Shown: positions 9,101 through 11,157, numbered from the stretch's first letter. The stretch: 13,427 nucleotides of DNA from a virus (IMGVR_UViG_2529292909_000008:1-13427); one strand, 5' to 3'. Program-made: numbers and translations. The notes: generated by a model not told the origin, from the letters alone.

Positions 9101-9683
9101 TTACGCGTTATTCACTTCCACCACGATACTGTCAATCAGTACCGGGTAAGTCGCATTTTTAGTGATATCGGTCACGCGCAACTTGTCTGCCGTAAACGTG
9201 CCGACCGGAGACTGCGACAGCATGAATGGTGTCCCGTCCTTACCATCAATGACCGGCGTCACCTCAATACTGTTGTTACCGGCAAAACGGAAGCCCAGCG
9301 TATGCCATTCGTTATTAAATGCGCCGAATGACCCCAGCTTCGTGTTCTGCGCCGTGTTTCCTTTGTGATACATCACGTTAAGGTCTGTGGCATCGCTCTG
9401 TACGTAGAACGATGCCAGCAGGTTATGACCGGCACTTTCCTTCCAGAGTAACCCCTTGCGGCAGGGCAGAAACCGGCCAGTACAGCGCCAGTGCGTACTG
9501 ATTAGCCGTAAGCGCGCCATCGAGTTTAAAACGACAACTGACAAGACCACCTTTACCCAGCAGGTCCGCACCATTACCAGCATCATGCTCAAGGTACCAG
9601 GGGGCTCTTCCTGTTTCCTTGGTCAGTTTCATTGCCTTACCCCCGCTGGCTCCGGCATCATCCACGATTTTGAGCCTTGCCAC
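9101..9683 (-). pseudogene. C-terminal (putative carbohydrate-binding) part of the nanS-p-like esterase, split across two frames
   Basis: Track ORFs 9423-9683 and 9101-9592 lie in the two other frames, collinear with and downstream of the 499-aa esterase ORF. Together they read as one continuous C-terminal domain if 1-bp indels are assumed near 9668-9671 (T4 run) and in about 9430-9530 (for example the C4 run at 9452-9455). Confidence 0.5.
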
Positions 9684-11157
9684 CTCCGGCAGCCCAACCC
9701 TGTGGTGTCAACCGTCCTTCAGACTCAGATGCCCGGTAAGCAAATAGCGTACTCATCGTCGTGGTGTCTGCGGGTGGCGTGGACGGTTTTGATGGTGTAT
9801 CAGGTGACGGCTTCTCATCCGGTGGTGTCACGGTCTGCCCGCGCATCAGTTCAGCCGTGCGCCCTGCATGGAGCATAATAGCTGAGGCCAGACGGTCTGA
9901 AATGACGCCCCTGCGTGCCCATGAGCTGAAATGGCTGTCACGCTGTGTCGAAACAAAACTGCCCTGGGTTCGGGATGCTGCACCGTAATACCCGACAGCC
10001 ACAATATCCGGGTCTTCCGCCGGAGCATTCGTTGGCGTGCTCTGTCCATTCTCATCCGTCAGGAACGGTACAAAGAAAATTTTCTGTGCTTCCTTGCCTT
10101 TGTAGCCACCGTATACTGCCTCATATTTATCGGTGCCAGCGTTTTTCCAGTAATACGTGGTATCACCGCAAATCCACGGCACCGTGGTGGCATTTCCACT
10201 CACGCACTGCGCAGCAAGCGGAGCCAGGTCAGTTCTGAACTGCTGAACCATGGCCGTGAATAAACTATTATGCTGCTGGCTTCCTGAGGCAAGGTCTGCC
10301 TCTCCCTGCATCCAGACCACAGCCAGAAGTTTGTTTTTCGGGTTTTTCGCCAGCGCGACTTTGGTGCGGCTTACCAGGTCCTGATACAGAGGTTTACCGG
10401 CCCCCCAGCGTGAAGAATCAGCGGAAGCACCGCTGGCCTCACTGAATGAGCCGTCGGCTCCAGTGGTGAATGCTGACCCGCCACGACAACAGGGCACCAG
10501 AAGTATCCCGGCATTCTGTGGGATATAGGGAAGCAGTTTTTTGGCAATATGCAACCCCTGACCGACAGTCCCGTACTGGCCTTTTGCCAGATCAGCTTTC
10601 GGGTGGTTTATCCCGCTCATATCCTGAACATCATGCAGGCAGTGGTCTGCCGGAATGATGTCGTTGTATGTACACGACGTACCGTTGGGCGTTACCGTAC
10701 TGCGGCGTGCCAGTTGCTTAATGCGTGGGTCCGGGCGGTCAAACGAATCCGGTAACGGCAGCCCCTCGCCGTAGGCCATGCCATTTGACTGACCCGCGAG
10801 AATGACAACAAAGTAATATTCCGGCTCTGAACTGCTGCCATTCGTGCTACCGGAAGGCCCGGCGTTATCCGGTGCATTCCAGTCGGAGGGCGTGAGCGTT
10901 CCGGCCACGTCAGATGTGATTGGAATGATGCCAGTCACGCCTGAACTGGTGATTTCTGCACTGGGATTACCGGATACCGGCATTACCCATAATGGCTCTT
11001 TCGTGCTGAAGCGGATCACGCAGTCTGCGAAGGTGATCCCCCCTTTATTACCCGAAGGGCGGAAAGGGCTTTCAATAAATGCCACCGTGCCACCGGCAAC
11101 CTTGACTGAAAACTCTCCGGGCATGGCGGAGAGCATTTTCCACTTGGAGTCTGACAT
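9658..11157 (-). CDS. Prophage NanS-p-like sialate 9-O-acetylesterase: N-terminal domain, SGNH/SASA esterase domain and Pro/Ser/Thr linker; C-terminal domain frame-broken
   Basis: 499-aa ORF with the esterase motif block YYFVVILAGQSNGMAYGEGLPLPD...GILLVPCCRGGSAF...WMQGEADL...GDTTYYW, closely resembling E. coli NanS/YjhS and prophage NanS-p proteins (from memory). A linker TPPDEKPSPDTPSKPSTPPADTTT precedes the premature stop at 9658-9660. Confidence 0.8.
   Translation of the reverse strand: MSDSKWKMLSAMPGEFSVKVAGGTVAFIESPFRPSGNKGGITFADCVIRFSTKEPLWVMPVSGNPSAEITSSGVTGIIPITSDVAGTLTPSDWNAPDNAGPSGSTNGSSSEPEYYFVVILAGQSNGMAYGEGLPLPDSFDRPDPRIKQLARRSTVTPNGTSCTYNDIIPADHCLHDVQDMSGINHPKADLAKGQYGTVGQGLHIAKKLLPYIPQNAGILLVPCCRGGSAFTTGADGSFSEASGASADSSRWGAGKPLYQDLVSRTKVALAKNPKNKLLAVVWMQGEADLASGSQQHNSLFTAMVQQFRTDLAPLAAQCVSGNATTVPWICGDTTYYWKNAGTDKYEAVYGGYKGKEAQKIFFVPFLTDENGQSTPTNAPAEDPDIVAVGYYGAASRTQGSFVSTQRDSHFSSWARRGVISDRLASAIMLHAGRTAELMRGQTVTPPDEKPSPDTPSKPSTPPADTTTMSTLFAYRASESEGRLTPQGWAAGGGKAQNRG

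Follow-up and report, generated by a model that had tools for sequence, protein, structure and literature searches.

The window analysed in this study is a stretch of 13,427 nt and corresponds to the complete contig AIFY01000016.1 of the draft assembly GCA_000249655.2. Positions 1-6612 belong to the E. coli chromosome and carry an autotransporter gene, iprA, ampH, sbmA and the start of yaiW. The junction between chromosome and prophage lies within yaiW at 6612/6613, and the prophage starts at 6613. The presence of com and mom together with the yaiW junction fixes the element as Mu-like and also fixes its orientation. In the Mu-like prophage the order of genes is constant: G-segment, gin, esterase, DUF1378, DUF826, com and mom. 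Coordinates of the features are given in Table 1.

Table 1. Features of the esterase locus and of the right end of the prophage, with positions in the window
Feature	Position	Strand	Remarks
Whole esterase gene (Mu-type NanS-p)	9101-11157	-	684 codons in intact copies; three frames here, with two inserted bases
Mu-type N-terminal module	10843-11157	-	Predicted all-beta at residues ~5-80, followed by a Ser/Gly/Pro linker to ~105
SGNH/SASA catalytic domain, residues 110-428	9874-10830	-	GQSN serine S124, SHF histidine H409
C-terminal lectin-like jelly-roll domain (DUF6645), residues 469-684 of intact copies	9104-9753	-	Spans three frames here
First frameshift	9668-9671		T4 in the window, T3 in 23/23 comparator copies
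Second frameshift	9435		Extra C between A9434 and T9436; found in no comparator
DUF1378 small gene	8774-8956	-	Same neighbour downstream of nanS-p in lambdoid prophages
DUF826 small gene	8484-8738	-	Third gene of the shared esterase-DUF1378-DUF826 block
Terminator-like hairpin with T-run	8452-8477	-	Closes the three-gene block
Gin-type invertase (serine recombinase)	11243-11815	-	Directly upstream of the esterase; two compensating private indels
Mu-like prophage right end (com and mom to yaiW junction)	6613-7632	-	Fixes element type and orientation
com	7432-7632	-	Mu-like prophage
mom	6741-7478	-	Mu-like prophage

Some further features of the contig should be mentioned here. An IS1 transposase fragment (16-261, plus strand) is present at the contig start and is probably the reason why the contig ends there. 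The junction leaves a cut-short YaiW product of 55 aa (ORF 6450-6617, plus strand), which is present only in AIFY01000016.1 and in one Logan assembly, and no match spanning the yaiW::Mu junction was found in the complete RefSeq E. coli genomes. The stretch from com to DUF826 (about 7650-8480) is a variable accessory region, which is unrelated in three other copies (L001, L036 and L037) and the same in two (L002 and L003); it contains plus-strand ORFs at 7747-8046 (phrog_26524) and 8039-8245, and strong hairpins at 7904-7933 and 7676-7700. Beyond gin, two pairs of inverted repeats, one of 86 nt with 90% complementarity (11886-11971 and 13132-13217) and the other of 50 nt with 84% complementarity (11985-12034 and 13069-13118), flank a tail-fibre assembly gene (12305-12826). 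These repeats are presumably the borders of an invertible G-like segment served by Gin.

The esterase gene begins 85 nt downstream of gin on the same strand and lies between gin and com/mom, in agreement with the preliminary description, which had placed it immediately downstream of the invertase in a Mu-like element. No terminator-like site was found between gin and the esterase, and promoter-like sites near the esterase were not above chance. Rightward transcription would reach the esterase by read-through from gin or start at a promoter of its own, and the esterase, DUF1378 and DUF826 would form a three-gene unit ending at the hairpin downstream of DUF826. The sequence just 5' of the esterase start (11158-11200, minus strand; CTGTTTAATTCAGAAACAGG) is conserved in the divergent Mu-like copies L022, L024 and L033, and the stability of the hairpin that is possible in this region is not above that of shuffled sequence (z -1.05).

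In the window the esterase starts with ATG and is open for 499 aa (9658-11157, minus strand), and the catalytic domain lies wholly within this ORF. Beyond the stop, the protein continues in the other two frames, at 9423-9698 and then at 9101-9430. When the pieces are joined across the frames, a full-length match to DUF6645 is obtained (Pfam, E 5e-67), which bears out the earlier proposal of an intact esterase-domain ORF followed by a C-terminal domain spread over two further frames. The SASA family of Pfam matches residues 117-312 (E 6e-14), residues 110-428 match the sequence of the NanS/YjhS crystal structure (PDB 3PT5, E 2e-117), and residues 469-683 match the solved C-terminal domain of NanS-p (PDB 6YP6, E 7e-98). 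The protein shows 65% identity to L0105 of phage 933W across residues 94-683. It is 85-91% identical to lambdoid proteins of 647-650 aa with the domain order DUF1737-SASA-DUF6645, solely from residue ~105 onwards (~105-684). The catalytic residues S124 (in GQSN) and H409 (in SHF) are invariant in the alignment. In the databases the protein is named either 'DUF6645 domain-containing protein' or 'sialate O-acetylesterase'. As judged by these matches, the catalytic and C-terminal domains are those of a NanS-p-family esterase, as had been proposed.

The positions of the two frameshifts were obtained by comparison with intact copies. In the reference E. coli DLI.5a (L001) the same gene is a single ORF of 2055 nt coding for 684 aa (WP_001284083.1), and positions 9000-11300 of the window are identical to it over 2301 nt apart from two inserted bases. 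One is an extra T in the run 9668-9671 (T3 in L001), on account of which the 499-aa ORF stops at 9658, and the other, at 9435, is a C (GGCA^C^TTT, against GGCATTT in L001). Both sites predicted for two 1-bp indels (9668-9671 and 9430-9530) were thus correct. Besides the window, the prophage was found in more than 23 copies inserted at many sites (ypdB, elfC, a Flag-2 gene, rhs regions, pdu and ydhR); all have the same gene order and an intact esterase with a length of 679-685 aa.

It was considered that ribosomal frameshifting might join the three frames into the full protein. The frame layout is the one observation in its favour, and two +1 insertions would require two separate -1 events at sites that are not slippery. 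Every other allele is a single uninterrupted ORF, identical apart from the two inserted bases; programmed recoding was therefore rejected, and the chance that it operates here is negligible.

When the prophage portion of the window was scanned by k-mers against 23 other prophage copies, taken from complete genomes and other assemblies, six private sites were found. Five of these are 1-bp indels (9435, 9668, 11588, 11648 and 12110) and one is a substitution. The substitution (C/T) is at 13391, 36 nt from the contig end. The indel at 12110 is a deletion (GG to G) in an inverted tail-fibre fragment (11878-12252). Gin carries a private -1 (A4 to A3 at 11589-11591, the indel at 11588) and a private +1 (an extra C at 11648), which are 60 nt apart. 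This pair changes the conserved DTLLVWKLDRLGRSMQHLVL into EYPAGLETGSPWTQYAAPCP, that is 20 out-of-frame residues, while the ORF of 190 codons is kept. If real, these indels would leave a dead recombinase; they are probably the same sequencing noise.

A sixth private indel is found outside the prophage at 5307, in sbmA (5218-6437, plus strand), where the window has G4, and the frame of SbmA in the window is lost beyond codon ~31. The unique yaiW::Mu junction recurs in the Logan assembly of SRR094136, which can therefore be taken as the same strain. This assembly is the same as positions 249-6631 of the window except that it has G5, and it contains a continuous SbmA ORF of 406 aa. Exact-product look-up in a gene-position collection found the frameshifted 499-, 416- and 80-aa esterase pieces (the latter two being the frameshifted products as called in the record), as well as the mutant Gin, only in AIFY01000016.1, and the look-ups through Mom and Com led only to long contigs of other strains. 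A sister draft with an adjacent assembly accession, AIFX01000029.1 of E. coli DEC6C (L031), carries the same prophage at 5784-11578, where it has six homopolymer indels at other positions, of which three fall within the esterase. In this sister copy the early genes are joined directly to the baseplate genes by an internal deletion, and the contig ends inside the esterase.

These data have to be weighed against the possibility that the gene is a real pseudogene, in which two true +1 frameshifts, along with more in gin, in the tail-fibre remnant and in sbmA, would leave at most a 499-aa fragment devoid of the lectin-like domain. The deposited sequence does contain the insertions, and other remnants also have decayed neighbours, such as the gin of L001 and the com of L037, both of which are frameshifted. 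Moreover, two of the insertions (9435 and 11648) are something other than a plain miscount of a homopolymer, which counts against an artefact. On the other hand, five of the six private differences in the prophage are indels and the lone substitution lies close to the contig end, a pattern unlike the spectrum of natural mutation. The independent assembly from this strain does not have the private sbmA indel, none of the other records contains the frameshifted products (the Logan assembly of that strain included), the sister draft has the same class of noise at other positions, and the esterase is intact in all the other copies. True decay is accordingly improbable. The excess of indels over substitutions, the contradicted sbmA indel and noise of the same kind in a sister draft indicate that the two frameshifts are, with good probability, base-calling or assembly errors of the draft contig. 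It follows that the suggestion of a truncated catalytic fragment or a pseudogene is unlikely to describe the biology of this gene, the two insertions being part of a set of six 1-bp indels private to this contig. One observation should be kept in mind. The Logan contig reaches only 19 nt into the Mu end, and the strain may therefore carry more than one Mu-like copy, one of which could be truly decayed. The strain probably makes the full protein of 684 aa, and it is likely that the locus represents a complete NanS-p gene of three modules, standard in a Mu-like prophage widespread in E. coli and Shigella, with frameshifts that are artefactual.

The N-terminal module differs from that of the known proteins of this family. 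A DUF1737 domain had been expected at the N-terminus, but no match to PF08410 was found there with Pfam, and a different domain occupies its place. This holds for the Mu-type proteins of 680-691 aa, which are without PF08410, in contrast to the lambdoid ones of 647-650 aa, which have it. No family of Pfam or PHROG matches the module. In the AlphaFold prediction, residues 7-79 form an all-beta domain with a mean pLDDT of 71 (about 85 for the core), and a disordered linker comes next; fold searches with this domain gave only weak matches to cupin or jelly-roll-like structures, which are uninformative. Word-index searches and one exhaustive HMMER search for homologues returned fragments of the same esterases and one homologue from a Salmonella Mu-like element, and nothing else that was convincing; the fourth match of the exhaustive search (P0126) looks spurious. 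In the Salmonella enterica contig (L035; ABQUQB010000040.1, 6792-8461) a Mu-like gin is followed by two small ORFs and then by a SASA esterase. The N-terminal domain of this esterase is 30% identical to that of the window, and the contig ends inside the gene.

The N-terminal domain is conserved among the esterases of Mu-like prophages. Its identity is 63% between Mu-type copies, even with L033, the copy of a divergent Mu-like phage that resides in an Stx2c phage, as against at most 23% between Mu-type and lambdoid copies. The enzyme bodies give a different picture, as that of Mu-type L001 pairs with lambdoid L034 (92-93%) and that of Mu-type L033 pairs with 933W (80-82%). N-terminal modules thus group strictly by phage type and enzyme bodies group across types, which implies that Mu-like and lambdoid phages have exchanged the body at least twice. 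The N-terminal module would track the type of phage, while the enzyme body would recombine freely between Mu-like and lambdoid phages. The DUF1378-DUF826 pair is also found downstream in the lambdoid context, where it precedes the holin gene.

Regarding function, recombinant lambdoid NanS-p proteins remove acetyl groups from Neu5,9Ac2 and mucin O-glycans and enable lysogens to grow on Neu5,9Ac2 (PMC8065619, PMC8319020). The C-terminal domain of NanS-p is a lectin-like jelly roll, which, as cited in the review, has been proposed to bind carbohydrate (Franke et al. 2020, cited in PMC8065619). The Mu-type protein is 65-93% identical to lambdoid NanS-p, a family with characterised enzymes, and by this homology the same chemistry is its most likely function. 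The enzyme would strip O-acetyl groups from Neu5,9Ac2 and from acetylated mucin sialoglycans and so make them usable through the Nan pathway of the host, and the C-terminal domain would direct the enzyme to glycans.

The gene had also been called a moron, which is apt as a description of its position; as a statement on its role the term is called into question by the lambdoid homologue of phage phi24B. NanS-p of this phage, gp84, is an abundant virion protein that decorates the capsid; its DUF1737 domain forms a hexamer at the centre of the capsid hexons, and the enzyme body is later freed by autoproteolysis (bioRxiv 10.64898/2026.04.10.717836). An N-terminal module that changes with the type of phage while its cargo is exchangeable is what would be expected of an anchor, and the Mu-type N-terminal domain could, tentatively, be a second, unrelated virion anchor displaying the NanS-p esterase and lectin cargo on Mu-like particles. 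If this is true, NanS-p would be a portable cargo for which phage lineages swap anchors in order to attach it to virions, and the esterase gene would serve the phage as a structural accessory, not being a simple moron.

The protein might, going further, have its job in the life cycle of the phage and not in the nutrition of the host. It would then deacetylate O-acetylated glycans of the bacterial surface, such as O-antigen or K1-type polysialic acid, or bind and modify mucus from the virion, and would be a structural or adsorption accessory instead of a moron of lysogenic conversion. The abundance of lambdoid gp84 on the phi24B capsid (bioRxiv 10.64898/2026.04.10.717836) and the co-variation of the N-terminal module with phage type, as for a virion anchor, are in line with this, and deacetylation of O-antigen has been raised as a possible role of NanS-p in a review (PMC8065619). 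Several observations speak against it. The recombinant lambdoid enzymes act on Neu5,9Ac2 and mucin glycans and support the growth of lysogens (PMC8065619, PMC8319020), and the fold of the N-terminal domain is without an informative match. In addition, two degraded remnants, which are devoid of structural genes and no longer virion-capable, keep the esterase ORF intact: L001, located in ypdB, and L036, with an IS903B deletion. Retention of the esterase in these remnants hints that the host benefits, as in the classical view of a moron, and a job confined to the life cycle of the phage is rather doubtful. A benefit to the host and a virion anchor are compatible and do not exclude each other.

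The present analysis has a practical side too, as it averts a false call: the 'broken' esterase, the scrambled Gin and the truncated SbmA are best taken as errors of an old draft and not as biology. In the searchable literature no description of a Mu-type NanS-p was found, NanS-p being described there only from lambdoid prophages. The same enzyme is present with a different N-terminal module in a Mu-like prophage that is common in E. coli, Shigella and Salmonella and actively transposes. Carriage by Mu-like phages would widen the range of strains that are able to use or modify O-acetylated sialoglycans. With DUF1737 serving as a capsid anchor, the Mu-type module gives rise to a testable prediction on the modular display of enzymes on phage particles.

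Compared with known systems, the gene is closest to lambdoid NanS-p of Stx phages (933W L0105/z1466; phi24B gp84, vb_24B_21), with which it shares the SASA/SGNH domain and the lectin-like DUF6645 C-terminus. The overall identity to the 933W protein is 65%, that to some lambdoid alleles is 92-93% in SASA and DUF6645, and the downstream neighbours DUF1378 and DUF826 are the same. It differs from these proteins in that a module of about 105 residues replaces their DUF1737 of 68 residues and linker, and in that it resides in a transposable Mu-like phage between gin and com/mom, whereas lambdoid NanS-p is encoded in the late region that depends on Q, with stx (or tRNAs) on one side and the lysis genes on the other. 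Chromosomal NanS (YjhS, 3PT5) has a homologous catalytic domain, of which the GQSN serine and the SHF histidine are kept. However, it is a single-domain protein (337 aa in the 3PT5 chain) that belongs to the chromosomal sialic-acid regulon, and it has neither the N-terminal phage module nor the lectin-like domain. Like the decoration protein gp84 of phi24B, the Mu-type protein is built of a small N-terminal domain, a flexible linker and the same enzyme body, and its N-terminus tracks the type of phage. DUF1737 consists of one helix and three strands, in contrast to the predicted all-beta fold of the Mu-type domain.
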